Shown: in pieces, positions 496 to 32,141 of the stretch
How positions within the stretch are numbered: the stretch's first letter is position 1
Layout: every line of letters begins with the position of its first letter
Assembly: GCA_963575745.1 (NCBI GenBank)
Contig: CAUYUJ010000051.1
Span: forward strand, 62,001 to 119,008
DNA length: 57,008 bases
Direction of reading: 5' to 3'
Source: Prorocentrum cordatum
Lineage: Eukaryota
Position numbers and translations under genes: made by a program
The notes under the pieces: generated by a model
The model's input: only the letters and a program-made list of their open reading frames with translations
What the model was told of the DNA's origin: nothing
Databases searched by the model: none

Positions 496-702
496 TCCCA
501 GATGTGGCCCGAGTGGGTGGAGTCGGAGGATCGCTTGGCATCGCCGATGCATCAGCGATGTGGCGCGATGTGGAGCCTGATGTTCTCCACCCCGACGTCG
601 TCAAGGCTTTGCCGACGTTGCCGATGCATCGCCAATGCATCAGCGATTCATCGGGGATATTGCGCGATCTTCCGACCCCATCCACTCGGACCCCAGTTGG
701 GA
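496..702. mobile_element. MITE-like element, TCCCA...TGGGA family
   Basis: ~39-bp imperfect terminal inverted repeats (TCCCAGATGTGGCCCGAGTGGGTGGAGTCGGAGGATCGC / GCGATCTTCCGACCCCATCCACTCGGACCCCAGTTGGGA) with internal CATCGCCGATGCATC motifs; related copies at 15361 and 48501. No clear TSD. Confidence 0.7.
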
Positions 703-803
703 TGCCTCTAACGCAGTGCTGCGGCAGTTGTGGGTGCGGCGGACGGGAGCAGTGAGAGCGATGTCCTGCGGAGGAGCTATGGGGAGGGGGAGGGGGCAAG
801 GGG

Positions 804-804
<1 letters not shown>

Positions 805-902
<98 letters not shown>

Positions 903-968
903 GGAGGAGGAGGGAGGAGGAGGGAGGAGGAGGAGGAGGAGGAGGAGGTGGAGGAGGAGGAGGAGGAC
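805..968 (+). repeat. (GAT)n followed by (GAG)n microsatellite
   Basis: Read directly; abuts the SL at 969. Confidence 0.95.
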
Positions 969-990
969 TCCGTAGCCATTTTGGCTCAAG
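969..990 (+). other. Dinoflagellate spliced leader (DinoSL) DNA copy at 5' end of LINE-A
   Basis: TCCGTAGCCATTTTGGCTCAAG, exact match to the 22-nt DinoSL consensus DCCGTAGCCATTTTGGCTCAAG. Confidence 0.97.
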
Positions 991-1100
991 TCCATAGCGG
1001 TTGCTCGAGGACGCGAGTTTTTTTGTGGCAAGGGCATTTCACGGCCGCACCACACATCGGTACTGCAGCTACCTGATCGCTCTTTACCGATGCCTTCGAT

Positions 1101-1368
1101 ATGGATGGTTTCTCTCATTGGACGTGCCCGAACACGAGGTGCGGAAACAATGGGAACTTCTCGTGGAGATCTACGTGTCGTGTGTGCAAGCAGGCGCCTC
1201 ACTGAGTTCCCGAACCCAAGCCAGCAGGATGTGCGCGTGGCAGCTGGGCCAAGGGGCCGCCAGCGCGTGACGCTCCGTCTAAGGGCAATAGCGTGCAGCT
1301 CACAGACTCGTTGGTCGCCATCTATGTCCGCATTCCCGAGGAAGAGTTCAAGTCTCTTGCGCAGTCGC

Positions 1369-1404
<36 letters not shown>

Positions 1405-2110
1405 AAGCAGGTTGCCCGTGTGGTCAGCAAGAGAGCGCTCGATGCGGGTGCACCTGAGGCTGCCGTGCGAGCCTCCCGTCAGGACACTGACGCGTTGCGC
1501 CAGCGCGTCAGCCAGGCTCAGGCCAAGTTCGACAAAGCTCAGGAGGCCGCGGCAGCCGAGGCCTTGGCGTACATGGGAGATTGCAAGCAGAACCTCATTC
1601 GTGTCAAGCAGGAGGCCGACGCTGCTGCCGCCAAGGCGGCTGCGGCCTACAGCGCCATGGCCAGTCAGGGTGGGAACATCTCCGTTGCCGCGGCGCTCCA
1701 GCTGATGCAGGGTCCCCTCGCCGCTTTGCAGCAGTCGGCGCTTGATGAAGCCTCCCAGCTCGAGGGGCTCGTGCAGGCTGCCGCGCAGCCTGTGGGCCCC
1801 CCTTGCCCGCCCGCGGCGCCCCCTGCAGGCCAGCCCTCGCAGGCCGACGGGCCGATGGGCCACAGGTGGCGCCCGCCCCCGCGGGCGGCGCGCCTGTTCA
1901 TGCTGGCGGTGGTGGCGCTCCTGGGGCTGGCGGGGCAGGCGGCGGTGCGCAACAGCAGCAGCCTGGGCATGCCGACGTCCCGATGCCCCCCTGCCCCCGA
2001 CTGGTCCATGTTCACTGACCCAAACGGCGGCTTCTACCAAGAGTTCTTGGCAGCGCCGGGCCTTGTCGACCCCGAGAACGCCGCAGAGAATGCTGAGTCA
2101 GGCGCCGGGG
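1101..2110 (+). pseudogene. LINE-A ORF1 remnant (RanBP2-type zinc finger + Ala/Gln-rich coiled coil)
   Basis: ATG at 1101 gives MDGFSHWTCPNTRCGNNGNFSWRSTCRVCKQ (W-x-C...C...N...C-x2-C), then stops and a (TC)n insertion at ~1372-1402, then a helical segment RQRVSQAQAKFDKAQEAAAAEA. End approximate. Confidence 0.65.
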
Positions 2111-2239
2111 CCAGTCACGCCGCCCCCGAGAAGCCGGGCTTCTCGCGCAATTTCCCCCACGATGCCATCAAGTCCATGCAGGGCGCGCGCAGCGTCGAGT
2201 GTTTAGCGCCAAGGTCTTTTTCACCACGGCCAGCGTCAC

Positions 2240-5200
2240 AGGGTGCTCTGGCCTTGAATGCGTGCTTGAACGCCAGGATGTGCTGAAACTGCGCGGCCCT
2301 GGCCATCCGAGAACATGATTTTGCCCAGGTTCACGCCTGGGAGGTGCGTTTTCGGAATTTGGGATGGTCTGCCAAAGGCTCGGCGGCAGAGATCACCCCA
2401 GCAGGTGGCACCTCTGGCTGTCTCTTTCAGATGGTGCAGAGGAAAGTCGGCATGGCAGAGCTACCTGATCAGAGTTTCTGCGTGGTCGACGCGCGTGTGA
2501 GCATACTCCACTTCTTTGCCTTGCGGCCTGATGGAGTGCTCTGGGCCGTTGTCTACCTTCATGACTCGCATGGTCTGCCGCCACAGAATTGCAAGTCATT
2601 GGCTGTGCCGGGGGGCAGACTGTATCGATGTGGGATGCCGTGTGTGGTTTCAGGTGACTGGAACATGACCCCCGAGGACGTCCAAGGTTCAGGCTGGGCC
2701 GACAAGCTCGGCGCCGTGCTGCTCGCGCTGGTCATCGCCGCATGCTCGCAGGGCGCCGTGCGCGCGCTGGACTGGTTCGCTGTCTCGCGCGGCTTGCGCT
2801 ACGGGGCCCAGGTGCGTGTCCTCACCGCCGTTGGCGCCAAAGACAGCAAGCCAGTTCAAGTCTCGCTCAGGGGCGCCGATGCGGGGGAAGCTCGGCAGGG
2901 CTTCGCCACAGTCCCAGCGCAGGAGTTCTTCGAGATTTACCAGATCCCCGATGAGGAGCGCAGCAGCTGCGTGGGGCGGGCGGCCTAGCCGCGCGCGCGG
3001 GCGCAAGCCGCCGCCCGCCGTGCAGCTTCTGTGCCCGCACGCGTCGCCTGTCGCCCCCCTGGTTTCGTGCGCTCAGCCAAGTGTTGCAGGGGCTGCCTCC
3101 TCCGCGGAAGCCCGCTGCTCGGGGCGCCGCCCTCAGTGCGCGCCTGCAGTTGCGTCGGTCTTCTGGGCCCCTTCCCGTCGGCGCTTGCGGGGCTTTGGCG
3201 CCTCCTCCTGAACGCGGCTGCTGACTTGGACTGGGGCTTGGTCAAGTCTTTAACCCTTGATGCTCGAGCCTCTGGCGAGAGGCTGCTGGCGAGCGCGGGG
3301 CTCGAGAGTGGCGGGGATGGGTCCGCGGGCGCAGCGGCGCTGGCGGAGGTGCTCTCTACGCTCTGTCCAAACCTGTCGTGCCTTCGCATTCCAGCCCTGC
3401 CTTTCAAGAATATGGCGCGGCCAGAGCCCCGCCGACCTCGCAGGGGCAGGAGATGTAGCTTCGCGCGGAGGAGTGGGGTCGGTATTGGTGTGTCGAACAG
3501 TTGGAGGATTGCAGTCAGTGGCCCGCTGACATGGGTCCACCATTGCCCGAGTTCAGCCTCGATGGGCTGCGCGAGTAACTGCGCCCGTTTAGGTTCGCCA
3601 GCGGCGCTGGCTTTGATCGGATCAGCCCTCGGCAGCTCGACGAGCTCATGGACGAATGGCTCGAGTGTCTTCCGCAGATCATCTTCTCGATTGAGTGCGC
3701 CTTCACCTGGCCGCGGGCGTGGTCCAGTATAGTCTTTTTTAATGAAGCGCTCGGGCGGCGTGCGCCCCGTTGCGCCACTCCACTTGCGCGCGCGCGTCCA
3801 GGGGCGCCTCCGCCGCCCCCTGCCCCGGGAGTGGCAGCGCGAGAACTCTCGGGGGTTCTGGTGGTCGACGTCGGGGGGGGGTCCGAGCGTTGGGTTTGAA
3901 TTCGCGCTGACACCTTTGAGTGGGCTGTGGGGCGAGGTCTTGCGGCGGGCGCGGTGCGTCTAGACCTGCGGAGAGATTTCGAGAACATGCGTCATGGCGC
4001 CCTGCTGGAGGCAGCTCGGCGCGCCACCTGTCCTTTGGGGCAGCTGAGGCTGCTCATCTCGCTGCGCGGGGCGCCGCGGGCGCCGGGGTGTGGCGGCGCG
4101 AACTCCAGCCCCGCCCTCGCTCAGCAGGCGGTGCTCGCAGGTTGCCAGTTTGCCGCTCTTTGTCTGCAGATGGTCGTTCTCTCCCCTCTCGACTTTCTGC
4201 AGGCCGCTTTCCCTGGGCAGACAGAGGGGGGAGTTCAGTTGGGGGCTGTAGTAGATGATCGTGGGCTGCGCAAAGTTGGCCGAGGGCAGCGCGCCCACCT
4301 GCGCCCCGCCAAGGCTACTGTCATGCTGCGCGGTGGGCGAGGACATTTTCGCCTGACAGTCGGCCGCCCCAAGGGTCGCATCCTCCCGTCCTTCTCGCGC
4401 ATGCGTCTGGGTCGCGCCGCCGTGCTTCGCTCTTGTCGGTATCTGGCCGCTCAGTTCAGGCGGAATCTTGGGGTTGACTATGCGGTTGGCGGCGTCATTC
4501 GCAGGGCCGCCGAGCGCAGTCGACGCGCTGCCGCAGTCACTTGTCAGGGCAAGATTGTTTGACTTGCCAGTCAACTTCGCAAGCGTCAGGTGCACGACGC
4601 CGTCCGAGCTGCCGCCCTGGCCCCCGTGTCATATGGGTCGGGGGTGGCGGGCGCTTCGGAGGCGGAGCTGCGCGAGGCGCGGCCCCTGCAGGCAAGTGTG
4701 CAAGCTCAGAAGCTCTCAGGGCGCAGCGTCGCGCTTCTTTTGCGTTTGGCGGGCGTCAGATAGGTTGACCCCGCCTCTTCCTTCTGCTCCGCCCCCTTGC
4801 TGCACCTCGCCTCGGCGGTCTGGGAGTCTCGGGTGCCTGGAGGCGCCCTCGCTGCAGGGCTCGAACGGCCGAGCGAGCGCTCGAAGGGCAAGGGTCGCCC
4901 TGGAAGGCCATCGGAGGGCCCCTTTTCCAGCTGCGCTGCGTCTGCTCGTGGGCTAGGCATCGAGATCGACGGTCTCGCCTGGTCGCGCCCGCCTGTTGGG
5001 TTTTTTCACCGGCCGAGCTTTGCGCGTGAGCGATCGCGCGATACTTTGATCAAATTGTCGAGCAGTGGTGCCGGCAGCGCGTGGCCGCGCATCTCGAGCG
5101 GTCTGAGTTTAGGTCCCGTGCTCGCGTTAGTGCTCGCAGGCATGCGGCGGCTCGAGGCTCGCGAGAGGGGTCATGTCGTTTCCGTCGTTGCGGGAGGCCA

Positions 5201-6669
5201 GTGACCCCAAGCCAGGCAAGCAGCGCTGCAGTTGTCTGATATCAGCGAGTGCCAGGTCTGCCAGGCGCCCCCAGGCGCTCTTGCGCATGGGCACCTCCCT
5301 TGTCCGGGGCACGAGGGCGCTTTCCAGGCCGAGGCCCCAGCTGTGCCAGCATATCTGGTTAGGCACCTCAATCGCCCCTCTGTCCGTCTTCTCGCGGAGA
5401 GGCTGCTGCTGCCGCTGCTTGCCCTCCCCGCTCCTCCCCTCCGCGTGCCTGGCGAGGTCCGGCTCAAGGGGGTACCTGAGCTCCTAGAAGGAGACATCTT
5501 TCTTGACGGCAGCCTCCTCGATTGTAAACTGCCCCCGCAAGCCCAGAACATGGGCCGGGCCATCGTTGCGTTGCGCGAGACCCAGGCCGTCCACGTGTGT
5601 TTCTTGGCTGGGGGGTTCAGAACTGGTCGCTGGTCTGTGTGACATTGATTGCGCCGAGCTCTGGGCCCTCCTGCATGCGCTGCGAGCTGCTCTGCCTGGC
5701 GCCACTTCTTGGACCGATTCTCAATTTGTGAATGATGGAGTCTTCAAGAGATCGACTCTATTTTTTTTGCCATGGCGGCGTGGGCCGACCTTTGGAACCA
5801 GGTGTGGGCCGCCATCGAGGATCGAGGCGGGGTCGAGTCTCTTCGGTTGTTCAAGCTTAAGGCCCGCATCTCTGCCGTGGACCTTGAGCAGGGGTGGATG
5901 ACCTTGCGCCGGCGTCAAGGTAACGTGCTTTCGGACAAGACGGCCAAGGATCGGGTATAGCCAGGACCCCGGGTAAGGTGATCCAGTTCGTGGTAGGGCC
6001 CTGGGGCCCCCCAGTTGGCCAGAGTCACTAAACCAGGCTTGCCGCAACTGGTGTTTTGCGGGTGACGGCAGTTCTGGTTCGTGGAAACGGGACGGGGGGG
6101 CGCCCCCGGTATAAATCACTAAACCAGGTTCCACCCAAACCAGTTCTGCCAACGCCCGAAAGGAGGCCGCCTGTTTTACTCGTGCCCCCGAGCGCTTTCG
6201 CGCGTGTTCCCGCTCCCAAGCAAATGCGCTGTCCTTCCTTACTGTATGGGTCGGACGCATCGGCTGAAATATGGCCGACGTCGACTGTTTGAATGTCCCT
6301 GTGAATGCCCGTGGCACTCGCAAGGAGGCCAAGTCTCAGTGTGTTTTGTGGCCGCCGCCTGTCGTCGTGCCGCCCATCCTCTCCAGGGCTGATGTGGCTC
6401 TCGCCGCTCTCCGCCGTGAGGGCTGCCGCATGCGCCAGGCCTTCCCGATTTCCGGGCGCCCAGGTCCAGGGGTTAGTTTGTGCTGTCTGTGGTGCGGGGG
6501 TCCATCTCTCCGCCGCCTTCAGAAGCCCCTGCAGTGGCAACCCGTCTGTTTGGGAAACGCGGGTGTTAAAACACTCGCAGACGGGAGGTACCTCCACGGC
6601 AAAAATTGGGTGCCCTTGTCCGAACCGTGGCGACGTCAGCTTCTCGTGGAGAGTGGCCAGGCGTTCTGA
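2240..6669 (+). pseudogene. LINE-A ORF2 remnant (AP-like endonuclease, reverse transcriptase, RNase H, C-terminal Cys motif)
   Basis: APE motifs VVYLHDS, SGDWNMTP, LDWFAVS; RT motifs LDLRRDFENM, VLAGCQFA, VVDD, NLGVDY; RNase H motifs IFLDGS, AELWALL, WTDSQFV, ADLWNQV, GNVLSDKTAK; C-terminal CLWCG. Many frameshifts and stops. Confidence 0.85.
5951..6159. mobile_element. 209-bp MITE inserted in LINE-A RNase H, 5-bp TSD AAGGA
   Basis: Termini TCGGG...CCCGA with imperfect ~17-bp TIR; AAGGA at 5946-5950 and 6160-6164; removing it restores the frame GNVLSDKTAKEAACFTRAPERF. Confidence 0.85.
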
Positions 6670-6964
6670 CCTTTTTGATTTTTGTTTGGTGTCGCCATCC
6701 CTCGCCTGGGCAGTCGAACCTAAGCGAGGTGACAACAAATGTTCGTTCTGATGCCCCCCCTGGTCTTTGGCAAGACGGAGGGGACCTCGCTCCCCTTCCT
6801 CTTTAGCTCCGTGCCGAGGAGGAGGAAGAGGACTTGCAGGACTTGCAGCCTTCGCGTCGCGAAACAGGAAGACGAGGAGGAGGAGGAGGAGGCGGAGGGA
6901 AGAAAAGGAGGAGGAGGAGGAGGAGGAGGAGGAGGAGGAGGAGGAGGAAGAGGAGGAAGAGGAG

Positions 6965-7064
6965 NNNNNNNNNNNNNNNNNNNNNNNNNNNNNNNNNNNN
7001 NNNNNNNNNNNNNNNNNNNNNNNNNNNNNNNNNNNNNNNNNNNNNNNNNNNNNNNNNNNNNNNN
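6965..7064. other. Assembly gap (100 N)
   Basis: Run of N between (GAG)n and (CCT)n tracts. Confidence 1.
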
Positions 7065-14174: not shown

Positions 14175-14528
14175 TGAAGGCAACAAAACACACGCTGCTC
14201 CCCTGGGCCCCGGGAGGAGCGGTCCAGCCAGAATCTGCGCGCACATGTGCTCAGTGTCAGCGCCCTTCCCCCCCTTGCCATGCGCGGCGGCGAGGGAGGG
14301 GGGGAAGTTTCGGGTTCGAAATTCGAGGCTCTCGGGCGTTTCGAGTTTGTTTGAAGGCAACAAAACACACGCTGCTCCCCTGGGCCCCGGGAGGAGCGGT
14401 CCAGCCAGAATCTGCGCGCACATGTGCTCAGTGTCAGCGCCCTTCCCCCCCTTGCCATGCGCGGCGGCGAGGGAGGGGGGGAAGTTTCGGGTTCGAAATT
14501 CGAGGCTCTCGGGCGTTTCGAGTTTGTT
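14175..14528 (+). repeat. Tandem duplication, 2 x 177 bp
   Basis: TGAAGGCAACAAAACACACG... starts at 14175 and 14352; copies appear identical. Confidence 0.93.
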
Positions 14529-15360
14529 TTTTTAGACTCGGGCACGTTTCCTTGCATGGCGTTCGGCCCCCCCCCCTCGCCCCTCCTCTTCAAACGAATA
14601 GGAATACTAGCGTGCAAATGCCTTTCGGCTTGCGTGATCTCCGCACTTGCCAGTCGTTTGCGCCTTGCTTCAGGTCCAGGCCCCCCCCCGTCCATGCAAG
14701 TTAACTTGACTTGCCAGGGTCTAAAAACAGGCTCTTTCGTAGTTTCTTGACGGTTTTCCACCTTCGGAATGCGTTCCAGCGGCTGCGCCTCGTCGAGAGC
14801 GTTCTGGGGGTGCCTGGATCGTCCCGAACGGCCGCCAGAGACCCGAGTTATGACCCAAAACCCAAATCGGTGGTGCGCCCAGGGGGGGAAGTGAGAGGGA
14901 GAAGTGTTTTCTGTGCCTTCGGGGAAGACTTAGAGAACTTTTAGGCCGGGGGACTTCCGAGCTTTCTGAGAAGGCCTGCCTTTTCTCACTTCCCCCCGGG
15001 CTCGCCGCCGAGCATAGTGGGCGTCTCTCCCCCCTGCTACCCCTCCCAGGTCTTTGCAGGCCCAAGAGAAGCTGTGCCCCAGAGGCTTACGCCATTCTCT
15101 CCCGATCCTGCGTTGCTCGTAACGGGGCAGCGTGGTCTGTGGGGCCATCAGTGTTCAACATGCAGAAGAGGAGGAGGGGGCGGAAGAGGAGGAGGAGGAG
15201 GAGGAGGAGGAGGAGGAGGAGGAGGAGGGGAATGAGGAGGAGGAGGAGGCGGTGGAGGAGGAGGAGGAGGAGGGGGGGGAGGAGGAGCAGTAGGAGGACC
15301 AGGAGGAATAGGAGGAGGTGGCAGAAGAGGAAGAGAAGGAGCAAGAAAACTGCCCAGGCT

Positions 15361-17236: not shown

Positions 17237-17530
17237 GGTCGGCCCCGGGAAGTCGTCTGGATATTCTGGGCCCACGTTGTGCACAAATCCCGGCGTCGAC
17301 TCTTGGGAAGGGGGTGAGGGGGATGAGGAAGAGGGAAAAGGAGGAGGAAGAGGAGGAGGACGAGGAGCGGGCGGGAAAGGAGGAAGAAGAGGAGGAGGAA
17401 GAGGAGGGGGAGGAGGAAAAGGAGGAGGAGGGGGAGGTAGGAGGAAGGAGGAGGAATATGAGGGGGAGGGGGGAGGAGGATGAGGATGAGTAGGATGATG
17501 CTGATGATGATGAGGATGAGGAGGAGGACG
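17237..17530 (-). repeat. Right arm of ~300-bp inverted repeat (partner ~13110-13406)
   Basis: GTCGGCCCCGGGAAGTCGTCTGGATATTCTGGGCCCACGTTGTGCACAAATCCCGGCGTCGA is the near reverse complement of the left arm. Confidence 0.85.
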
Positions 17531-18380
<850 letters not shown>

Positions 18381-18499
18381 TATTTAGTACTCCGCGGCCC
18401 GCAGCCTCCCTCCGCCGCAGCACCGAAGCCCTGAGGAGGAGCAAGACAAGGGGAAGGAGAAGGAGAGGAGGACGGCCGGCCGCACTCATGCGGCAGCCA

Positions 18500-18676
18500 C
18501 CTGGGGTCCCAAGAGGGGCCACCCCCAGGAATAGCGCCTCGACGATGCGGACGAGCATGCCGAAGCAGTCCTCGAAGAGAGGCGCCCGAAAGCGCACTGG
18601 GGTCCCAGGAGGGGCCACCCCCAGGAATAGAAGCGCCTCGACGATGCTGACGAGCATATCGAAGCGGACCTCGAAA
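18500..18676 (-). repeat. LINE-B 3' UTR duplication (~96-bp period) carrying two conserved hairpins (18500-18529, 18597-18624)
   Basis: Sense CCTGGGG-GTGG-CCC-CTCTT-GGG-A-CCCCAGG and CTGGGG-GTGG-CCC-CTCCT-GGG-A-CCCCAG. Confidence 0.88.
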
Positions 18677-18755
18677 GAAGTAGGACTTATACCATGATAC
18701 ACATAGACGCCCAAGACCAGAAGTCTCAAAAGAATGAAAAGTCAGCACGACGAAA

Positions 18756-19960
18756 TTAGGTGCCGATATGCTCGGGCTGCTTGCTGCAAAATGCCACACG
18801 CCCCTTCGGTAGAATACCTCGGACCAATTTGCCCAAGTTCTGATGTCCGTAGTGACCCATCTGACCAGAACACACATTCGCCAACCTGCGCAGGAAATGC
18901 TTGCCGACACAACCGCAGCGCAGACAGGCATGGATCTGCAGGTCCTTGAAATAACCCAAGAGGTGGGACTCATGAATCGGAACTCCTTGTACATGAACTC
19001 CAACATCGCCTACTCTCTGAATGTGGCCCTTGAGAACACCCCCCAAACAGGGCGTCTCCAAGAACCTTTCCAACTTGCGACCACTCGCACTGCAACCACA
19101 AGCCGAACAATGAAATGATGTGCCCATGCCAGTGAAGACCTGGTGCTCGGACAGCTTGACACGACGACTGAACTTTTTCGCCATGGACCTCGTCGGACGG
19201 ACTCGTTTGGGCTCCGCCTCCGTCGCTGCCAGGAAAGCCTTGGCCAGGTGTTTGCGGACAGCACGACCGATTGCTTCCGCATACTCAAGAGACGCTGCCA
19301 CTGAACTATGAACAGCCACCACATTTGCCCAGTAACCAGCCGCTTCATCCGCTAAGGCGTTAGCGAGGTAGTGTTCGATCTGCGTCCCAGCTTGGATGGC
19401 CACCTCGACAGACATGTGGCTCTCGATCTTGACGACACTGAGCATAGATGGGTACTGCGCAACCACGTCCTTGACCTGCAGCCAAAGGTCCAGGTTCGTA
19501 GTCGGAAGCCGCCCTTGCGAGAGTTTGCGGAGCCCATTGACCACGTACCCCGAGTCCGTGACGAAGGTGATAGGGACCCCTAGGTCGAGCAGATCTTCTG
19601 CGGCCCTGAGCAAAGCCGTCGTCTCACCTCGGTTGATGGTCTGCTTCTTGGGGATGCCACCGCCTCGGGAGAACAAAAGCTGGACGTCTAGGTCGGTGTC
19701 GGAGGTCACCTTGATGACTTGATATGACCAGCCAATGCGCCGCAACCTAGCATCTGCAGAATGGAGCCCTCCTGAAGCATCACCGCCAACCAAGAGATGA
19801 TCGAGATCCCTGAGATCATCCTTATGGCCGATGACCTCATCATACGGGTTGTCTGTCGGCTCGTCCACCTTGGTCCAAGGAGCAGGCAGTATGCCCCTCA
19901 ACCACAAGCAGGGAAGGTTCTCGTAGTCCTGGTGGGCCCTGCTACGCAAGTTTGAAAGAG
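18756..19960 (-). CDS. LINE-B ORF2 C-terminal part: RNase H plus Cys/His motifs (frameshifted from main ORF2)
   Basis: RNase H motifs VGGDASGG, NRGETTAL, FVTDSGYV, NLDLW, KIESH, ANALADEAA; then H..FHCSACG and H..HACLRCG. Junction with the upstream frame near 19950-19975. Confidence 0.9.
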
Positions 19961-22900
19961 ACCGACGAGAACACATCATTGCAAGAACACGACCAACTAC
20001 GATGCAAATCGGTCTCTTCCAATCCACACTTGCAACGCTGACACTCGGTGGTGTCCAAATTGCTGCTGCTCAGGGTCGAGATCCTGCTGCGCGTCCACGA
20101 GGCTCCCGTCATGACAGTCTCGATAGCGCCTGCCATCTCAAACTCGCCCTTCTTCTTCAAAGATGTGAGGTGACGTCGAGCTTCACAGACGTCAGCTCCC
20201 TCTTCAAGACCTTTGCCATTCCAATGCCTCGAAGCCTTGTCCCAAAGCATACGGTCGATCGTATCAGAGATGGCATCTTTGAGGGCACTCATATCTTGGG
20301 GACCTTGACCGATGATGCGGTCTGGGGCCATAAATCTTTCTCCAAGATCGGAAATCCATGCCCAAGGTCCCACAGGGTCCCAACCAATGTCTAAGAGCGT
20401 GGCTATAGTTGCAGACACCACTCCAGTGATGCCTCTCCATCTGTCCTTCAAATCCCTGCTGTCAATCCGTCTTCGTGCCGTCCTCCAGGTACGACGTGCC
20501 AACTCTAGGTCGAAGCCTGGTTTGAAAATAATGGACAACCAAGATTCCACCAGCCTGTGCACGATCTGATACTGAGGGTCCTTGCGGCCGACACGTAGTT
20601 GTAAAAGAGTTGTGAGGCAACGACTTGGCCACTTCTTTGCCAGGGTCTGTCCCAGAGCTTTCCTCCAGCCGTTGATGACCGGCGGAGCCGCTCCAAAGAC
20701 TTTGTCCGAGTAGTCCGCCATCGGAAGAACACCCATCATGGCCAATTTAGCGCCGATCTTCTTGCGAACCGCACCTTGAGCAAACCGCTTGACACGAGTG
20801 AAACGCTGCTGAGCACCTCTTCGCCGCTGAGCCTGCTTCGGACGCCGAAAGCCAACCGTACCTCGATCGATGCCCAAGTCGGTGGCGACACTCTCGATCT
20901 TGACCTCGAAGCCCTCCTTGGCGAATCCTCGTTTCAACTCCTTGCCTAGCCCAGCATTGTTGGTAACTATCGTCGACTTTGCCGATATCACCAAACCTGC
21001 CTCAGAGCAACCTTTTGCAAAAGTCAAACCAGCTTGCAAGGCTAGTCCGAGAACTCTTTTGTATCTGCCTTCCACTCTTTGAGAAACGTCATCCACCCAG
21101 GACCTGACCGTAACACCAGGAGACCCCTGCGCCACTCTGTCCAAGATGTTGTACAAGGAACAACGAGAGAAACCCACTGCGCCGCCAAGTCCAGCTATCA
21201 TGCTCTGCTCGGGTATGATGGCATCAGAATAATAACCACTGTCACGGAGGAAACGCACTCCCATGTGTAAAATCATCTCCAATGCCAAGATGCACGGTGG
21301 AAAATCGTGCTCCATACCAGTCTCCAGTAAGAGCTGCCACTTGAGAGCGTCGTAGAACCCCTCAATGTCCCACAGCACGCTGGCCTGCACCCAATCTTTA
21401 ATCGTGGTGAGCGCGACCGTCTCGTCCAGGTAACTGCGAGCTAAGGCCTCGCGCAAGGCTGAGGAACCTGCCACTGCTGCATCCCAGTGCCCAGCCTTTG
21501 CCTTTGTCCAGCTGGCACGGTACTCGCCTCGACAACTTGACCAAAGCCTCGCCAAGGTCGATAATATGCCAATGGCCCTGTCGTCACCGCTCGGATTGCG
21601 TAGAAGAGTGACCAGAACCACCGTAAGTTGCCAAGGCCATGCCACTGACTGTTCGATAAGTTGAAACAGTTGGACCAGCTCCTGCTTACCTTGCTCGGGC
21701 AACCAGACGAGGTCCCTCTTCCCCAACTGCTCAATGCCCTTCGCCGACGTGCCCTTCATCCTTCGGATGCCGTCTTCCAGCGTCTCCAAGTCGAAGACAG
21801 GAAAAGCGTCTTCACGAGCGCGAGCCCTAGCACGTCCCAAGAGTATGGTGACCTGGCCGATGTCGAGCTGCCGGTCACTCCACTTCTTCTTCCACACCTT
21901 AGCCCGAATGTCCATCGCCGTGAGGGGGTCCGACGATATTACCTGGCCTTCCTCGAACTCATCCTTCGAGGTGGCCTTGTCCTTGATAAGTCGAAACAGC
22001 TTCCCAGGTGCGGCAACATACTGCTCCTCCGCCCATTGGGAGAAGGCCAGATACTGAGAATAACATTCCATCCGCTGCAAGCTGGCAGCAATCTTGCTGC
22101 TCTCGTCCTTGTAGCGCCTGATGGTGTCGTTCGTGGCGATGTTGAGCTGCCGCAGCTTCCTGCGCCAAGCCGTTTTCTCCTTGTGCGGGAGAGAAGCCAG
22201 GGTCGAAGAAGGAACCCAAGCCGTGGCCTCCCTGAGTCTGGTAATTAGCTTCCCAAACCGAGGCGATTCTCGCTTGGAACTGGCTCTGTCCAACTCCTCC
22301 AACAAGAAAGCAATCTTGGCCCACCAGTCCACTCCAGGATCCCGTGTGCGTGTAAATGGAGGGGACGGCACCACTTTATGAGTCCTGGTAAGTCGAGCCA
22401 AACCTCGGCCTCGATGGGCCTTGCTGTCTTTGTCCAGACCCTCGCCGTCGAGCAGGTGGCTGAAGAACTCTTCAACCTTGCCAGCCCACTCGCCGAAAGC
22501 AATGCCCAGCTTGCCAGCACTATCAGAGGTAAGCCTCCAAGCGTGGGAGTCCGTGACGCACGGCGGCGGTTCCGACCAGCGATGATCCTGAGGTATGCTG
22601 ATGGACGACCAAAGATCGGCACGCTGATCAACTGACCACTTAACGCCTAAGCCAGCTCCACCCCCTGGAGGGACCAGGCCTTCATCTTGATCCTCTGGTT
22701 CGTCAGGTAGAGGCTCGTCGTCGTCAGGCTCGCCCTCATCGCTCTCCGAATCCTCCCCAAGATCCATAGGACCCAAGAAATTGAATGGAGGAGGAGATTT
22801 GATACCAAGCCGCCGTCTCTCCCCAAGCTTGGCGATCCTCGGTCTCGCTGACGTTGGAGTAGCCACCACCACCAACTTCCTCGAGCGCTTGCTGTTTGGA

Positions 22901-25362
22901 TCCGCCTGCTTCTTGGGCTGCGACGGAGGACCAAAAGCCTTTGGTAGGCTAAGAGTACGTCCCTCAGCTGGCTTGGCAGCCAGAAGTAAATCCAATACAA
23001 TACCGTAATGCGCTTTGCCGCCTTCGCCCACTAAGTCCGTGTCGGCGTGAATGCGGTCCAAGTATTCCAAGGCAGACCCTGAGGCCACAACATAGTCTAG
23101 GAGCGTTCCCTGCCCTCCAGTGTACGTGTAGTCCACGTTGTCTGCCACCAGGATATTGCCTTGGACCAAATTGAGCCACCCGGCCTTGCGGAGGGTATCT
23201 GGAGGAAAATTCCAGTCGCATAAGATGACCCAAGGTGTCGATAAAGAGGAAACGAGTGAGGCCAAATGTCTAAGTTTCTCCACGTTGGCGCCCGTGATGC
23301 CCAGACCATTGTATAGGTAGCCCCCGATAATCGTGAGATGTGCACCTTTCAAAAGCACCTGCATCCCGACCAGATCCTTAAAACGAACTCCAGTGGTAAG
23401 AGCCGCCACGTCCTTCTTGCCTTTATCTGCTCGCTTACCAGGTAGCTCGTCCTTGTTGGAGGCCAAGTGCCTAAGTGACCAAGATGACCATTTCTTTGAG
23501 ACACCCATCGCGACACCACCAGCTTTCTTCGTGAAGATAGCCGACTCAGCACCCGCTGGGCACACCATACTTTTGTAACCAGCTTTATCAAACTCCACCA
23601 AGACGTCATTGGTTTCGGCCATGTCCATGTGGGTCTCCTGGATGATGACCGCGTCGTAGGACCGTTTCAACAGCGCCTTGGCCGACGTACCCCAGGTCGA
23701 CATGTTACGCATGTACACCCGAAACTGTGCACCATCTCCCATGTCAGCCTTTGCCTCCTTCTCGGTACTCTGAGTGGCCACAATAGCTTGTATGACCCAG
23801 TCCCAGAAGATGCACATTCGATCCTGAGCCTGATCGTCCTCCATGTCGCCGTCAGCTTGATCAGGAAAGAAACGATCTGGAGGAACTCGATTCCCAAGAA
23901 GGCGTCGAAACCGTCGGCGCAGCTCACTAAGGTCGTCGAAGTGCCATCGCAGGAATCTCCTGTAGCGCCTAGGGTTCCTGATGGAATTGAGCGTGTTGAA
24001 GAAGAAAGCCCTGTGCGGCTCCGCTGTAACCCATGCGCGTGTGCATAAATGTTCTGCGATGTCCTGCAACGACATGCGGTAGTAATTCTCCAGGTTCTGA
24101 CGGAGGCCGCGCATAGACCGACGTGAGAGCGATGCCACAGTGTACGGAACACACCACTCCTTCCAGTGCTCCAAAGAATTGTAGCGCTCGCCTCTGATGT
24201 CGTGGACCCACCTGGACGCGGCAGCCGTCATATCATACCTCAGATCTCGCCGCTCTCTGGCTCGATCCACTCTGGGAAGTTGAGGAGGTCGTGGCCGTCG
24301 ATCTCGAAGTTCAGAGCCTAAGTCAGCGTAGAGCTCCCAGGTAACCTTCCAGCCACTTGCCTCAATCGTGCCCTCGAGGAGAAGGAGACTGTCGTGCTTC
24401 GCGAACAGAGACCTTTCCTTGCCAACAGAGATCCGTGGCCAGTTTCCAACCCGAGCCAGCCCAGCAAGTGGCAACGACGAACGTGGCGACGTCGAACCTG
24501 GGTGTCCAGGATTTTGCATTCTGACGCCCGCCTGGAAAGAATCTGCCTGTGCCGTCGACTGCGATAAAAACATACCGCGGCCGAAATGGTTAATTGCCTC
24601 AAAGTGCTGCTGCGACACAAGCTGATCTGTCCAGGAATCTTGAAAGTTGACGCTGTCAAAAGTACGAGATAACTTCGAACCATGCCAGTGCCAAGCAGAT
24701 GTCTCAAGTGGAGTCGCCCCTTGCGAATAAAAACTACTGGGGCTGCTATTCCCAACCAACAATTCAGGGGTCCCGAGAGAAACCACCCCCTGCATCCCAC
24801 CATCTGGGTAATTGAAGTAACCACCACCAGAAAGCCCAAGAGAGGCTGCCATTTGAGACGCACGATCGTCCCAGAAAAAGCAAACCTGGTCCTCCCAGAT
24901 CGTGCCAAGGGTCCCGAGAGGGGCCACCCCTTGGTAGGCATGCTCCTCCAACGAGCTGCAGAAAGCCTCTGACTCGAACTTGCCAGGGGTCCCGAGAGGG
25001 GCCACCCCCTGGTATGCAGTCTCATCTGTGGAGCCGTGGACCGAGGCCTCCCAGTCCGTGCCAAGGGTCCCGAGAGGGGCCACCCCTTGGTATGCAACCT
25101 TATCTGTGGAGCAGTAGATCGTGTCATACCCGTCCGTGCCAAGGGTCCCATGAGGGGCCACCCCTTGGTATGCTAGTAAGCTGTCGTCGCCCTGGCCGAC
25201 GTTCGTGACAGGGGTCTCGAATGGAGCCACCCCCTGCAGTAAACTCGTGCCGCCGAAGTCCAGGCCAGGGGTCCCAGGAGGGGGCCACCCCCTGGAATAA
25301 CCTCCTGGAAGTCCAAGTTGATGCCGTACTTGCAGTAGATCTGCCCGACTTGCCCTCTTCAC
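19942..25362 (-). CDS. LINE-B ORF2: N-terminal extension, AP-like endonuclease, reverse transcriptase, Cys/His finger
   Basis: 1806-codon open frame; APE (~22990-23730) IIQETH, GGVAM, GGYLYN, CDWNFPP, LLDYVV; RT (~20860-21760) DRAIGIL, WDIEGFYD, SMIAG, SWVDD, DLGID; CQRC...HRSWSC. True start codon unknown. Confidence 0.93.
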   Translation of the reverse strand: MKRASRADLLQVRHQLGLPGGYSRGWPPPGTPGLDFGGTSLLQGVAPFETPVTNVGQGDDSLLAYQGVAPHGTLGTDGYDTIYCSTDKVAYQGVAPLGTLGTDWEASVHGSTDETAYQGVAPLGTPGKFESEAFCSSLEEHAYQGVAPLGTLGTIWEDQVCFFWDDRASQMAASLGLSGGGYFNYPDGGMQGVVSLGTPELLVGNSSPSSFYSQGATPLETSAWHWHGSKLSRTFDSVNFQDSWTDQLVSQQHFEAINHFGRGMFLSQSTAQADSFQAGVRMQNPGHPGSTSPRSSLPLAGLARVGNWPRISVGKERSLFAKHDSLLLLEGTIEASGWKVTWELYADLGSELRDRRPRPPQLPRVDRARERRDLRYDMTAAASRWVHDIRGERYNSLEHWKEWCVPYTVASLSRRSMRGLRQNLENYYRMSLQDIAEHLCTRAWVTAEPHRAFFFNTLNSIRNPRRYRRFLRWHFDDLSELRRRFRRLLGNRVPPDRFFPDQADGDMEDDQAQDRMCIFWDWVIQAIVATQSTEKEAKADMGDGAQFRVYMRNMSTWGTSAKALLKRSYDAVIIQETHMDMAETNDVLVEFDKAGYKSMVCPAGAESAIFTKKAGGVAMGVSKKWSSWSLRHLASNKDELPGKRADKGKKDVAALTTGVRFKDLVGMQVLLKGAHLTIIGGYLYNGLGITGANVEKLRHLASLVSSLSTPWVILCDWNFPPDTLRKAGWLNLVQGNILVADNVDYTYTGGQGTLLDYVVASGSALEYLDRIHADTDLVGEGGKAHYGIVLDLLLAAKPAEGRTLSLPKAFGPPSQPKKQADPNSKRSRKLVVVATPTSARPRIAKLGERRRLGIKSPPPFNFLGPMDLGEDSESDEGEPDDDEPLPDEPEDQDEGLVPPGGGAGLGVKWSVDQRADLWSSISIPQDHRWSEPPPCVTDSHAWRLTSDSAGKLGIAFGEWAGKVEEFFSHLLDGEGLDKDSKAHRGRGLARLTRTHKVVPSPPFTRTRDPGVDWWAKIAFLLEELDRASSKRESPRFGKLITRLREATAWVPSSTLASLPHKEKTAWRRKLRQLNIATNDTIRRYKDESSKIAASLQRMECYSQYLAFSQWAEEQYVAAPGKLFRLIKDKATSKDEFEEGQVISSDPLTAMDIRAKVWKKKWSDRQLDIGQVTILLGRARARAREDAFPVFDLETLEDGIRRMKGTSAKGIEQLGKRDLVWLPEQGKQELVQLFQLIEQSVAWPWQLTVVLVTLLRNPSGDDRAIGILSTLARLWSSCRGEYRASWTKAKAGHWDAAVAGSSALREALARSYLDETVALTTIKDWVQASVLWDIEGFYDALKWQLLLETGMEHDFPPCILALEMILHMGVRFLRDSGYYSDAIIPEQSMIAGLGGAVGFSRCSLYNILDRVAQGSPGVTVRSWVDDVSQRVEGRYKRVLGLALQAGLTFAKGCSEAGLVISAKSTIVTNNAGLGKELKRGFAKEGFEVKIESVATDLGIDRGTVGFRRPKQAQRRRGAQQRFTRVKRFAQGAVRKKIGAKLAMMGVLPMADYSDKVFGAAPPVINGWRKALGQTLAKKWPSRCLTTLLQLRVGRKDPQYQIVHRLVESWLSIIFKPGFDLELARRTWRTARRRIDSRDLKDRWRGITGVVSATIATLLDIGWDPVGPWAWISDLGERFMAPDRIIGQGPQDMSALKDAISDTIDRMLWDKASRHWNGKGLEEGADVCEARRHLTSLKKKGEFEMAGAIETVMTGASWTRSRISTLSSSNLDTTECQRCKCGLEETDLHRSWSCSCNDVFSSVSFKLA
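24695..25295 (-). repeat. Array of 9 hairpin repeats (~30 nt; five at exact 78-nt period) at LINE-B ORF1/ORF2 junction
   Basis: Copies at + coordinates 24695 (degenerate), 24765, 24827 (degenerate), 24905, 24983, 25061, 25139, 25209, 25265; sense consensus CCARGGG-GTGG-CCC-N5-GGG-A-CCCYTGG; translates as QGVAPLGT(L/P) repeats. Confidence 0.92.
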
Positions 25363-26704
25363 TGGCCTCCCCCTGCGCTGCTACCTGCCCAGGGCGGGGC
25401 GGGAGCCAGGGTTCTGCCGAGGGTGGGCTGCTAAACTGTCGACTGTCTGCCAACTGCACCTGCCCTCTTCCTGGCCAGCGCTTCGTCCATGATGGTGCGG
25501 AGCTCCGTCTGCTTGCCGCCGACCAAAGGAGATGCCCTCGCCCAGGAAAATTTTCCAGCCGCCCCTGTCTGAGTCGGTGCCGTAGGTGGCCCACCGCAGG
25601 GCCTGTGGCTGAGGTGGCCGTAGCCTCAGCGCCACCTGCATCACCAGATCCTCCTTCGCCTGGATTGGCCGCCGAAGCAGGCGGGCACGAACTGGATTTG
25701 CGCTTCTTGGCCTGTTGCCAAGATCCGATCTCCTCCACCTTCTTCTGCTGCTGCGAGGCCAAATTCTCCACCACCTTGCGGAACTGCGAGTCCAAAGCCG
25801 CACGGAACTCCGTCTCGAAATTGTTTTTTTTGCGCCGTTCGAACTCCTCACGATCGCTATCCTCAAGGTCCACGTCGTCGAAGAGCCCCCCGAAGCTGAG
25901 GTTGAGCTCCGCCTTTTGGTCCAGAAACTGACGGACGTCCAGAAACTGACGGACGTCCAGCTTCCCCAACTCAGATGGAGACGAAGGCGGGGCAGGCGCC
26001 AGCTCTTTGGCCACGAGCTCCTGCGCCACAATAGCATCTGCCAAGTTGCTCGCACAATCTCGGTAGAATCCCATAGCTTCTCCCAGCTCTTGCTCGAGAC
26101 GGAGAACACGCTTTGCCACCTTGTCCATGCTGGCCTCGGCCCGCTCAACCTTCTGCGACGCCTCCGTGAGCCTGACAGATGCAGGCTTCGATGGTGCAGC
26201 AGCGGGAATTTGGTTGACCAAGGTATCACGAAGTAACTTTGCCTGCTCAGCTGCTGCACCTCCCTTAGCGATAATGCGCTCCAAGGCCGCCTTTTCCCCG
26301 TCCGAGGCCCCAGAACCATGAAGAGCGTCTGCTGGTTGCGGTGCCCCACCTCCTGGTCCTGCGGGCTTACGTCCTTTGAGGAAACAGCCGCAGTACTGGC
26401 AGGTGTAGTCGAATTTCTCCAGCAGGTCATTGTAGCAGAACTTCCCACAAACTTTGCACCAGGTCGCATCTCGTCCAAGCTTGGGAAGAGCGATGCGCTG
26501 CGAGATGTTCTGTCGAAGATCTGCTCGAGGGGTCGCTGGTCGCCAAGGCTGCATCTTGAAATTGCCGTATGCGTTCGAGCTACCATCCCCAAGACTGGGC
26601 CCCTGGTCGCTGAGAGACATACTTGCGCCTGCCGTGGTCGAAGATTGATACCACGGTGCTCTGCTCTGCCAAGACTTATACTGCTGACGCCCTCCTTTCC
26701 CCAT
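25124..26704 (-). CDS. LINE-B ORF1 (C4 zinc finger + coiled coil; putative RNA chaperone)
   Basis: ATG at 26704 (MGKGGRQQY); WCKVC..TCQYCG finger; coiled coil ASQKVERAEASMDKVAKRVLRLEQEL; 18-bp internal duplication (LDVRQF x2). A frameshift near 25590 is possible, which would end it near 25430. Confidence 0.8.
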   Translation of the reverse strand: MGKGGRQQYKSWQSRAPWYQSSTTAGASMSLSDQGPSLGDGSSNAYGNFKMQPWRPATPRADLRQNISQRIALPKLGRDATWCKVCGKFCYNDLLEKFDYTCQYCGCFLKGRKPAGPGGGAPQPADALHGSGASDGEKAALERIIAKGGAAAEQAKLLRDTLVNQIPAAAPSKPASVRLTEASQKVERAEASMDKVAKRVLRLEQELGEAMGFYRDCASNLADAIVAQELVAKELAPAPPSSPSELGKLDVRQFLDVRQFLDQKAELNLSFGGLFDDVDLEDSDREEFERRKKNNFETEFRAALDSQFRKVVENLASQQQKKVEEIGSWQQAKKRKSSSCPPASAANPGEGGSGDAGGAEATATSATGPAVGHLRHRLRQGRLENFPGRGHLLWSAASRRSSAPSWTKRWPGRGQVQLADSRQFSSPPSAEPWLPPRPGQVAAQGEASEEGKSGRSTASTASTWTSRRLFQGVAPSWDPWPGLRRHEFTAGGGSIRDPCHERRPGRRQLTSIPRGGPSWDPWHGRV

Positions 26705-26826
26705 GAAGAAAGAATATGTAGTAGGAAACCTGTGGTGATCAGGCTCCTGAAAGCAATTGAGAACTGGCTGCGGACTAGCAGCTTCCACTTCGGCACGGAG
26801 GCGCGGAGCCCCCTGAGTGCAACCAT

Positions 26827-26863
26827 CTTGAGCCAAAATGGCTTGAGCCAAAATGGCTACGGA
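26827..26863 (-). other. Full DinoSL (26842-26863) followed by 15-nt relic SL (26827-26841) at 5' end of LINE-B
   Basis: Minus strand reads TCCGTAGCCATTTTGGCTCAAG-CCATTTTGGCTCAAG-ATGG. Confidence 0.97.
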
Positions 26864-27070
26864 GGAGGAGGAGGAGGAGGAGGAGGAGGAGGAGGAGGAG
26901 GAGGAGGAGGAGGAGGAGGAGGAGGAGGAGGAGGAGGAGGAGGAGGAGGAGGGAGGGGGAGGAGGAGGAAGGAGGAGGAGGAGGAGGAGGAGGAGGAGGA
27001 GGAGGAGGAGGAGGAGGAGGAGGAGGAGGAGGAGGAGGAGGAGGAGGAGGAGAGGAGGAGGAGGAGGGGG
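26864..27070 (+). repeat. (GAG)n microsatellite (polypyrimidine CCT on the LINE-B sense strand)
   Basis: Read directly. Confidence 0.95.
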
Positions 27071-29964: not shown

Positions 29965-30309
29965 AGATGATGGTGTTGGCGATGATGATGGTGATGATGA
30001 GGATGATGATGATAACGATGATGATCATGATCATGATGCTGAAGATGATGCTGCTGCTGCTGATTATGCTGATTATGATGACGATGCTGATGCTGCTGCT
30101 GATAAGGATGATGACAATGCTGATGCCGATGTTGGTGGTGGTGATGATGATGCTGATGATGATGCTGATGGTGATGATGCTGATGATGCTGCTGGTGATG
30201 ATGCTGATGATGATGACGATGACGATGGTGATGGTGATGGTGATGGTGATAATGAGGATGAGGATGAGGATGATGATGTTAATGATGATGATGATGAAGG
30301 TTGTGGTGG

Positions 30310-30344
<35 letters not shown>

Positions 30345-31835
30345 ATGTTCATGATGGTGATGATAATGATGATGATGATGACGATGATGGTGATGATGAG
30401 GATGAGGATGAGGATGATGGTGATGAGGATGAGGATGGGGATGAGGATAAGGATGAGGATGCTGCTGCTGCTGATGATGATGATGCTGATGATGACGATG
30501 ATGATGCTGCTGATGATGATGATGATGATGATGCTGATGATGATGATGATGATGATGATGATGNNNNNNNNNNNNNNNNNNNNNNNNNNNNNNNNNNNNN
30601 NNNNNNNNNNNNNNNNNNNNNNNNNNNNNNNNNNNNNNNNNNNNNNNNNNNNNNNNNNNNNNNTGGAGAGGATGAGGAGGGAAACGGGGGGTGAGGAAGG
30701 AGGGTTGTGAGGAGGAGGAGGAGGAGGAGGAGGAGGAGGAGGAGGAGGAAGAAGAAGAAGAAGAAGAATACGAAGAAGCAGAATAAGACGAAGAATAAGA
30801 AGAAGAATAATACTACGAATAATAAGAATAATACGAAGAATGATAAGAATAAGAAGAAGAATACGAAGAAGAAGAATAATATTAATAATAAGAATAATAA
30901 GAAGAAGACGAATAAGAATAATAATAATAAGAAGAATAATAATAAGAATACGAATAATACTAATAATAATAAGAAGAAGAATAAGAAGAATAAGAATAAT
31001 AATAATAATAAGAAGCATACTACTAAGAATAATACTAATAATAATAAGAAGACGAATAAGAATAAGAAGAAGAATAAGAAGAATAACAATAATAATAAGA
31101 AGAATAATAATAAGAAGAAGAAGAAGAATAAGAAGAGGAGGAGGAGGAGGAGGAGGAGGAGCAGCAGGAAGAGGAGGAGCAGGAGCAGGAGGAGCAGGAG
31201 GAGGAGGAGGAAGAGGAGGAGTTGGAGCAGGAACAGGAGCAGTTGCAGGAGGAGGAGGAGGAGGAGGAGGAGGAGGAGGAGGAGGAGGAGGGGGAGGAGA
31301 AGGAGGAGGAGGAGGAGGAGGAGGAGGAGGAGGAGGAGGAGGAGGAGGAGGAGGAGGAGGAGGAGGAGAGGGGGGAGGAGGAGGAGGAGGAGGAGGAGGA
31401 GGAGGATAGGAGGAGGAGGAGGAGGAGGAGGAGGAGGAGGAGGAGGAGGAGGAGGAGGAGGAGGAGGAGGAGGAGGAGGAGGTTGAGAGGAGGAGAGGAG
31501 GCGGAGGGGGAGGAGGAGGAGGAGGAGGAGGCGGAGGAGGAGGAGGAGGAGTGGAGGAGGCGGAGGAGAAGAAGGAGGGGAGAGGAGCAGGAGGAGGAGG
31601 AGGAGGAGGAGGAGAGAGCAGGAGGAGGAGGAGGAGGAGGAGGAGGAGGAGGAGGAGGAGGAGGAGAGGAGAGGAGGAGGAGGAGGAGGAGGAAGAGGAG
31701 GAGGAGAGGAGGAGGAGGAGGAGGAGGAGGAGGAGGAGGGGAGGAGGTAGGAGGAGGAGGAGGAGAGGAGGAGGAGGAGGAGGAGGAGGAGGAGGAGGAG
31801 GAGGAGGAGGAGGAGGAGGAGGAGGAGGAGGAGGA
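29965..31835 (+). repeat. Compound microsatellite: degenerate (GAT)n, (GAA/TAA)n at ~30748-31135, (GAG)n
   Basis: Read directly. Confidence 0.95.
30564..30663. other. Assembly gap (100 N)
   Basis: Run of N. Confidence 1.
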
Positions 31836-32141
31836 GAGGGGCGCCCCCTGGGCCTGCCGCTCGTGCGAGACTCCGCTCCGTAGAGGGTCCTTGGTCTATG
31901 TCCTGCTTGCCGAAGCAGTGCGTGCTTGCACTGACTTCGGGGGCGGATATCATGGCGCGGGCCATGATATCTCCGCAGATTTCATGGCGCCTCTTCTTGT
32001 TTCATTACGTCCCAGGCCCCCCCCGCTGGGCCGCGCACATGCCGCCGGTCATGATTTGCACCCCCCCTCTTGGACTCCCCCCTCTTGGCCGCTCCCGATG
32101 ACCTCGGTCGGGGGCGGCCAAGAAGGGGGTGTTGACTCGGG

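Follow-up and report, generated by a model that had tools for sequence, protein, structure and literature searches.

Dinoflagellate genomes are full of leader-tagged retrogenes, and how such promoter-less copies come to be expressed is unclear; no reverse transcriptase is, to our knowledge, firmly identified as their source. Retrogenes tagged with relics of the spliced leader DinoSL, and their origin through the recycling of processed cDNAs, were reportedly described by Slamovits and Keeling in 2008. According to the model as set out in the accessible text of two papers, a leader-bearing mRNA is reverse-transcribed and integrated, and upon renewed transcription a new leader is spliced to an AG; this acceptor commonly lies within the old leader, of which a clipped relic then remains (PMC12014239; PMC7245778). 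Among relic-bearing genes, the term 'RNA-dependent DNA replication' is enriched, as stated in the available part of Song et al. (2017; PMC5585692). The LINEs of dinoflagellates have been treated separately: the accessible text on those of Symbiodiniaceae reports target-site duplications and makes no mention of a spliced leader at the LINE 5' end (de Mendoza et al., 2018; PMC5890265), and that of the P. cordatum genome paper draws no link between leaders and transposons. In the main-text passages covered by full-text literature searches, no statement was found that dinoflagellate LINEs begin with a leader.

The window analysed here, i.e. the whole stretch of 57,008 nucleotides (57 kb), contains two recognisable LINEs and two genome-encoded leaders, with both LINEs headed by a leader and both leaders heading a LINE. 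LINE-B is a non-LTR retrotransposon of approximately 8.5 kb on the minus strand. An earlier note, in which the span singled out comprises the leader, the relic and the upstream repeat of an element that itself runs from 26863 down to approximately 18384, had claimed that DinoSL forms the start of LINE-B and that behind it stands a relic truncated at the internal AG, and this is confirmed. The 22-nt 5' terminus (26863-26842, minus strand) reads TCCGTAGCCATTTTGGCTCAAG, which corresponds to the 21 invariant bases of DinoSL, as printed in the accessible text of PMC5585692 and PMC7245778, with a T at the variable first position; this T is equally readable as the final base of the CCT repeat. It is followed on the same strand by CCATTTTGGCTCAAG (26841-26827), an exact 15-nt relic that equals DinoSL without its first seven bases and is therefore cut after the internal AG, as in the published model. 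The minus-strand order is thus (CCT)n, TCCGTAGCCATTTTGGCTCAAG, CCATTTTGGCTCAAG and ATGGTTGC..., with all 37 bases of leader and relic exact and directly in tandem. With up to two mismatches allowed, the relic 15-mer occurs three times in the window, each time exactly, while shuffled sequence contains it 0.15 times on average and none of 100 shuffles reached three. The third occurrence (976-990, plus strand) belongs to another full DinoSL, at 969-990. Between the relic and the ATG of ORF1 lies a 5' UTR of 122 nt (26705..26826, minus strand), within which candidates for older relics were not significant (p 0.11-0.56); a comparison among the 5' UTRs of LINE-A, LINE-B and the related metagenome locus L002 gave no convincing shared sequence.

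The first open reading frame of LINE-B, ORF1 (25124..26704, minus strand; 526 amino acids plus stop), encodes a Cys-rich motif resembling a zinc finger, behind which lies a charged, helical region. ORF1 matched no Pfam family below E = 0.59, with no DNMT or cytosine methyltransferase detectable, and a search for ORF1 homologues gave no match. In the independent metagenome contigs L001 and L002 an ORF1 homologue stands directly upstream of an ORF2 homologue; ORF1 and ORF2 therefore form a conserved unit. The junction between the two frames is occupied by a 78-bp tandem repeat of 3.5 copies, detected by TRF (24901..25173, minus strand). A 40-nt GC-rich motif (GGGTCCCAGGAGGGGCCACCCCC...) is found five times within this repeat (24909-25251) and twice in the 3' UTR (18504-18543 and 18600-18639). 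The main frame of ORF2 spans 1812 codons from stop to stop (19942..25380, minus strand) and encodes an L1-type endonuclease (approximately 23736-22960), a reverse transcriptase with the conserved motifs WDIEGFYD and SWVDDV (approximately 21830-20800) and a Cys/His knuckle (approximately 20045-19985). This frame ends early through a frameshift between the reverse transcriptase and RNase H frames (19950..19970), and ORF2 continues in another frame (18756..20069, minus strand) with RNase H and a C-terminal Cys-rich region up to the stop at 18756-18758. The 3' UTR of 372 nt (18384..18755, minus strand) has an internal repeat of approximately 99 nt, no poly(A) and an unremarkable predicted fold (z = -1.58). 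It is followed by a microsatellite tail or target, detected by TRF (17316..18380, sense on the minus strand), which opens with a perfect (CCT)20 and continues as (ATC)n and mixed CTC/ATC repeats. No terminal direct repeats were found between the LINE-B ends, and hence no LTRs.

Searched alone, the LINE-B ORF2 protein matched no family in Pfam and no chain in the PDB. A word-indexed search retrieved six proteins, among which the nearest relative is 95% identical and named from Prorocentrum cordatum; the P. cordatum paralogue is 95-97% identical and belongs to a cluster of six member sequences. The family is large: an exhaustive search at E<=1e-3 returned 3597 cluster representatives, of which 1352 remained at E<=1e-10 and 221 at E<=1e-30. 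Among 28 long ORF2 relatives, RVT_1 was found in 10 (six at the Pfam cut-off), Exo_endo_phos in six (two at the cut-off) and RNase_H in 14 (seven at the cut-off), with nine lacking any Pfam family. A family profile built from 51 sequences matched human LINE-1 ORF2p (E = 1.1e-17) and RNase H chains (E of approximately 5e-11), and its positions 1-234 matched residues 1-235 of the L1-endonuclease-type chain 2v0s_A end to end (E = 1e-4); the reverse transcriptase motifs D..F.D and VDD are invariant in the family alignment. The domains found in the relatives and the profile match to LINE-1 ORF2p bear out the earlier claim that the unit behind the leader is a LINE, and on its predicted protein LINE-B is confirmed as a non-LTR retrotransposon with an L1-type endonuclease. 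The paralogue P0003, 97% identical, reads straight through the frameshift site. Judged by its 95-97% identity to a paralogue without the frameshift, this copy of LINE-B is young; given the frameshift in ORF2, it is itself probably not autonomous and may be dead.

The pattern of a leader-headed LINE is repeated in the window, which extends what had been claimed for LINE-B to a second element. LINE-A starts with a perfect genome-encoded DinoSL (969..990, plus strand; 22 of 22 bases), directly behind which stands a decayed full-length leader (991..1009, plus strand) recognized by its alignment score: against the whole leader it shows 15 matches, four mismatches and one 3-nt gap, a score at least matched at only two of 10,307 other window positions (p of approximately 2e-4). 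The body of LINE-A (1010..6865, plus strand; the 3' limit is approximate) is degraded, with many stops and frame changes. The LINE-B family profile nevertheless detects remnants of an endonuclease (2287-2985; E = 5e-12), a reverse transcriptase (3900-4559; E = 1e-8) and an RNase H (5736-5957; E = 6e-4), all on the plus strand and colinear with the layout of LINE-B. The two elements share no detectable DNA similarity, LINE-A being a distantly related LINE. An array of (GAT)n(GAG)n, detected by TRF, lies directly upstream of LINE-A (805..967, plus strand), and (AGG)n follows its 3' end (6866-6964, plus strand). A 100-N scaffold gap (6965-7064) interrupts the microsatellite, with (AGG)n before it and (CTC)n after it, so that the 3' limit of LINE-A and the scaffold join are uncertain. 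The 35 other long ORFs of the window matched no Pfam family.

Under the published recycling model, a leader followed by an exactly clipped relic points to an element that was trans-spliced and then reverse-transcribed over its full length no fewer than two times. At least two such rounds had also been proposed in the earlier note, and for the tandem leader and relic of LINE-B they are the natural reading; by analogy with the retrogenes, two rounds of this element through leader-capped RNA are well supported. The succession of events would be as follows. An earlier ancestor of LINE-B would already have been headed by an integrated leader, and transcription of this copy would have set in before its 5' end was reached. 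The resulting pre-mRNA would have been trans-spliced at the AG within the integrated leader, yielding an mRNA composed of leader, relic and LINE, which would then have been reverse-transcribed to its very 5' end and integrated, amounting to at least two full cycles. A clipped relic needs an integrated leader to be spliced at its internal AG; the precursor RNA must therefore have begun upstream of the element, and the parent LINE must have been transcribed from outside at least once. With flanking or read-through transcription, trans-splicing could define and cap the 5' end without need for a promoter of the element's own, and each full-length daughter would carry a ready acceptor. The next round from the present LINE-B copy would be expected to yield a leader with two relics.

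As each of the two LINEs of the window contains two leader-derived units, it is well supported by their 5' ends that both LINE-A and LINE-B record at least two rounds through leader-capped RNA. A life cycle dependent on trans-splicing is plausible, and the LINE-B family would lack a promoter of its own. An Rfam scan of the whole window returned no family at the gathering score, and hence no catalogued ribozyme and no SL RNA gene; as far as catalogued ribozymes go, this agrees with the earlier suggestion that the element does without a 5' ribozyme. Taken as a whole, we consider it probable that LINE-B is a young copy of an autonomous LINE from a Prorocentrum cordatum-like dinoflagellate, promoter-less and integrating into microsatellites, with a 5' terminus that reproduces in DNA the start of the element's mature mRNA, produced through at least two leader-recycling cycles. 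LINE-B contains a single relic, although many rounds through the internal AG should pile up relics. Either the number of relics is set back when other acceptors are used, such as the AG at the 3' end of the leader, or copies headed by a leader are side branches that do not last.

The surroundings of the leader in LINE-B are strikingly favourable for its use as an acceptor. The upstream (CCT)n array, detected by TRF on the sense strand (26864..~27174, minus strand), contains no purine from 27075 to 26864, which makes a pure pyrimidine tract of 211 nt, and no AG occurs between 27189 and the leader-internal AG at 26858/26857, so that 330 AG-free nucleotides precede the ...CCGTAG inside the leader. 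Ordinary 3' splice-site rules would select the first AG after a pyrimidine tract, and in the present LINE-B copy this would be the leader-internal AG. The proposal in the earlier note that the (CCT)n could serve as a polypyrimidine tract fits the sequence of LINE-B, with its pyrimidine run followed by TAG, but is not general, LINE-A being preceded by purine (GAG)n. Sense-strand flanks are (CCT)n at both ends of LINE-B and (GAG)n at both ends of LINE-A. Because each element has its upstream microsatellite type again behind its 3' end, and the tract of LINE-A is of purines, the tracts are more simply insertion targets or tails; a role of (CCT)n as polypyrimidine tract for the leader-internal TAG is at best partial, and the upstream (CCT)n is likely to be either the site of insertion or a tail left by a unit further upstream.

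Microsatellites abut both leader junctions and the LINE-B 3' end, although no more than 7% of all positions in the window are that close (within 5 nt) to one. The simplest reading of the CCT and GAG tracts is that the elements integrated into GGA/CCT microsatellites or were primed on them, or else that the tracts are element tails. Integration would proceed by target-primed reverse transcription into (GGA/CCT)n; both flanks of LINE-B are the same (CCT)n microsatellite, within which a target-site duplication cannot be delimited. The flank type may also decide the relic type, as suggested by these two cases: in a CCT flank, which offers no upstream AG, the leader-internal AG would be used and a clipped relic produced, as in LINE-B, while in a GAG flank the AG right before the old leader would be used and the full-length old leader retained, as in LINE-A. 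Composite microsatellites of (GAT)n followed by (GAG/GGA)n occur at 805-967, 18029-18380, 29966-31836 and 37585-39085, all four with the same plus-strand polarity; that at 18029-18380 is the tail of LINE-B, and the other composites may likewise be where retro-units on the minus strand end. Other window repeats detected by TRF are a perfect 177-bp tandem duplication (14175-14529), a 389-bp repeat of 2.1 copies with 98% matches (41349-42146) and a 77-bp satellite of approximately 13-20 copies (43858-45501).

Contigs of four runs (X1-X4) were compared with positions 25180-26880 of the window. The junction between 5' UTR and relic-type sequence recurs in metagenome contigs that are 90-96% alike (X2 record 12, X3 records 21 and 22, and X4 record 26). 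Contigs bridging the LINE-B body to a leader came from three metagenome runs only, with X2 record 12 approximately 96% identical and shorter pieces in X3 and X4. In run X1, which contains several sequence variants of LINE-B, the body is present at a summed depth of approximately 14-50 in a few variants, and the leader reaches a depth of approximately 18,400 with dozens of loose ends; X1 contigs break at the leader, which is repeated at very many loci, and none bridges body to leader. Joints with an extra relic occur in X1 and X3 and are not assignable to the LINE-B family.

Relatives of the LINE-B family were absent from both the viral contigs and the genome contigs searched. None of 10 related metagenome loci carries an intact leader, and most end before the 5' end, which is reached only by L002 and possibly by the second element of L003. 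L002 has 142 nt upstream of ORF1, containing only an 8-nt leader core (p of approximately 0.02), and the second element of L003 has no leader sequence at its 5' end. The 3' end of this related LINE, however, is an (ATC)n tail (L003 12233-12357 and downstream), and directly behind the tail stands a 21-mer that resembles a decayed leader (17 of 21 matches) and precedes an unrelated ORF of 214 amino acids; retro-units seem here to be strung together head to tail, with a microsatellite as the link. Exact 21-nt DinoSL sequences were also found in viral contigs, in 119 stretches (L011-L128 among them) and at 134 unique sites, mostly in giant-virus bins; none of these sites has a relic or is followed by the LINE-B family. 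Most of these leaders lie directly behind recurrent AT-rich promoter-like motifs and before diverse genes, and they look like virus-encoded host-leader cassettes. In L058, a GC-rich 'viral' contig and as such an exception among these sites, DinoSL at 177-197 precedes an ORF of 1040 amino acids (313-3435) without a Pfam family.

The alternative that survives best, and which we hold to be rather unlikely, is that trans-splicing is incidental: master copies with an internal promoter would drive the family, and leader-headed copies would be occasional by-products of read-through that contribute little. The related metagenome elements without an intact leader, the single relic of LINE-B and the frameshift in this copy would all fit such a scheme, as would the lack of functional overlap between DinoSL-relic genes and reverse transcriptase genes in Symbiodinium stated in the accessible part of a 2019 preprint (10.1101/783902). 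There is also a precedent in trypanosomatid LINEs, which, according to the accessible text, have an internal promoter and unspliced transcripts even though their hosts trans-splice all mRNAs (PMC1874656; PMC8190864). On the other hand, both LINEs of the window are leader-headed with two leader-derived units each, so that in either of the two families a leader-headed copy has given rise to offspring on one occasion or more. Moreover, the relic needs transcription from upstream of the element, and the enrichment of 'RNA-dependent DNA replication' among relic-bearing genes, given in the available part of Song et al. (2017; PMC5585692), likewise speaks against a merely incidental role.

It is very improbable that the 5' end of LINE-B is a chance resemblance, an assembly chimera with cDNA or part of a host retrogene instead of a transposon. 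The window does come from a scaffolded draft with an N gap, and cDNA-derived leaders are common in dinoflagellate data, but against these readings stand the 37 of 37 exact bases, the failure of all 100 shuffles to reach the observed count, the recurrence of the junction of 5' UTR and leader-type sequence in contigs of three other runs, and the endonuclease, reverse transcriptase and RNase H encoded in the unit, with its conserved ORF1 partner and thousands of relatives. A LINE site-specific for SL RNA genes, in the manner of SLACS/CZAR/CRE of trypanosomatids or NeSL-1 of C. elegans, would account for a spliced-leader sequence adjoining a LINE in two cases, but is scarcely credible and is contradicted by a complete leader behind which comes no SL intron but a relic with its cut precisely at the AG, an upstream flank that is a microsatellite instead of an SL gene promoter or array, the absence of a leader remnant after the 3' end, and a window with no match to an RNA gene family and only three leader-type 15-mers.

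Recycling of LINE-B through leader-capped RNA, the reading preferred here, has consequences beyond this locus. An autonomous LINE with a leader and a relic ties retrotransposition directly to leader-capped mRNA and indicates that full-length, cap-proximal reverse transcription occurs in the LINE-B family, which could in addition supply the reverse transcriptase for retrogenes. A broader proposition, possible though doubtful as a generalization, is that dinoflagellate LINEs of the LINE-B superfamily are promoter-less and leave the formation of their 5' end entirely to the host: they would land in (GGA/CCT)n, read-through from outside would transcribe them, and SL trans-splicing at their own leader would excise and cap the RNA, and that their RNPs, acting on leader-capped RNAs, would be the source of reverse transcriptase for the leader-tagged retrogenes. 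If true, SL trans-splicing would join internal promoters, host-gene promoters and ribozymes as a route by which LINEs obtain a defined 5' end. The junction between leader and LINE offers a handle for SL-primed cDNA or long-read tests.

Several described groups of LINEs invite comparison with the present elements. Microsatellite-targeting non-LTR elements are known, for example Waldo, Mino, Kibi, Koshi and Dong. Like these, LINE-A and LINE-B each have both ends in one microsatellite type, although here the repeats could also be element tails, and the two elements are opposite in orientation relative to the GGA strand. SLACS/CZAR/CRE and NeSL-1 insert inside SL RNA genes and borrow the SL gene promoter. 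With these, LINE-B has in common that a LINE is joined to spliced-leader sequence and that its 5' end would be set by host SL biology; it differs in that no SL gene is involved, the leader having come, on the reading preferred here, by trans-splicing of the element RNA. LINEs of the R2 type carry HDV-like 5' ribozymes and resort to self-cleavage. In the trypanosomatid L1Tc/ingi elements, the accessible text describes the internal promoter Pr77 (PMC1874656; PMC8190864). Both the R2-type and the L1Tc/ingi elements solve the same problem, that of obtaining a defined, translatable 5' end from a co-transcript without an upstream promoter; whereas the former rely on self-cleavage and the latter on an internal promoter, the device of LINE-B would be host SL trans-splicing.

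Closer to LINE-B in host and in coding capacity are SymbioLINE and the other LINEs of Symbiodiniaceae (de Mendoza et al., 2018; PMC5890265, accessible text), which share with it an ORF1, an ORF2 combining Exo_endo_phos, RVT_1 and RNase_H, the lack of poly(A) and a dinoflagellate host; SymbioLINE-Dnmt, in contrast, has in its ORF1 the cytosine methyltransferase that is not detectable in that of LINE-B. Genome-encoded SL sequences fused to transposable elements in Schistosoma mansoni have, as here, been suggested to represent trans-spliced, retro-transcribed elements, the authors also allowing for assembly chimeras; they belong to another SL system and phylum and, in the accessible text, comprise six cases without anatomy and without relics showing repeated cycles (Boroni et al., 2018; PMC5832876). 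The closest likeness is to the DinoSL-relic-tagged retrogenes attributed to the 'recycling of processed cDNAs' (PMC5585692, PMC12014239 and PMC7245778, as far as accessible), with the same genome-encoded 5' leader on an intronless unit, a tandem relic clipped at the internal AG and repeated retro-copying. As in those retrocopies, a complete DinoSL marks the 5' end of LINE-B (26863-26842) and of LINE-A (969-990), and a clipped tandem relic follows in LINE-B (26841-26827), whereas LINE-A has a decayed full-length leader instead. The relic-tagged retrogenes are host genes copied in trans by an unidentified reverse transcriptase, whereas in LINE-B the tagged unit is the LINE that encodes a reverse transcriptase, and the tag therefore records the element's own replication. 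Leader-tagged retrocopies were thus already known and the underlying idea has a precedent in Schistosoma; here the tagged unit is the retrotransposon itself.
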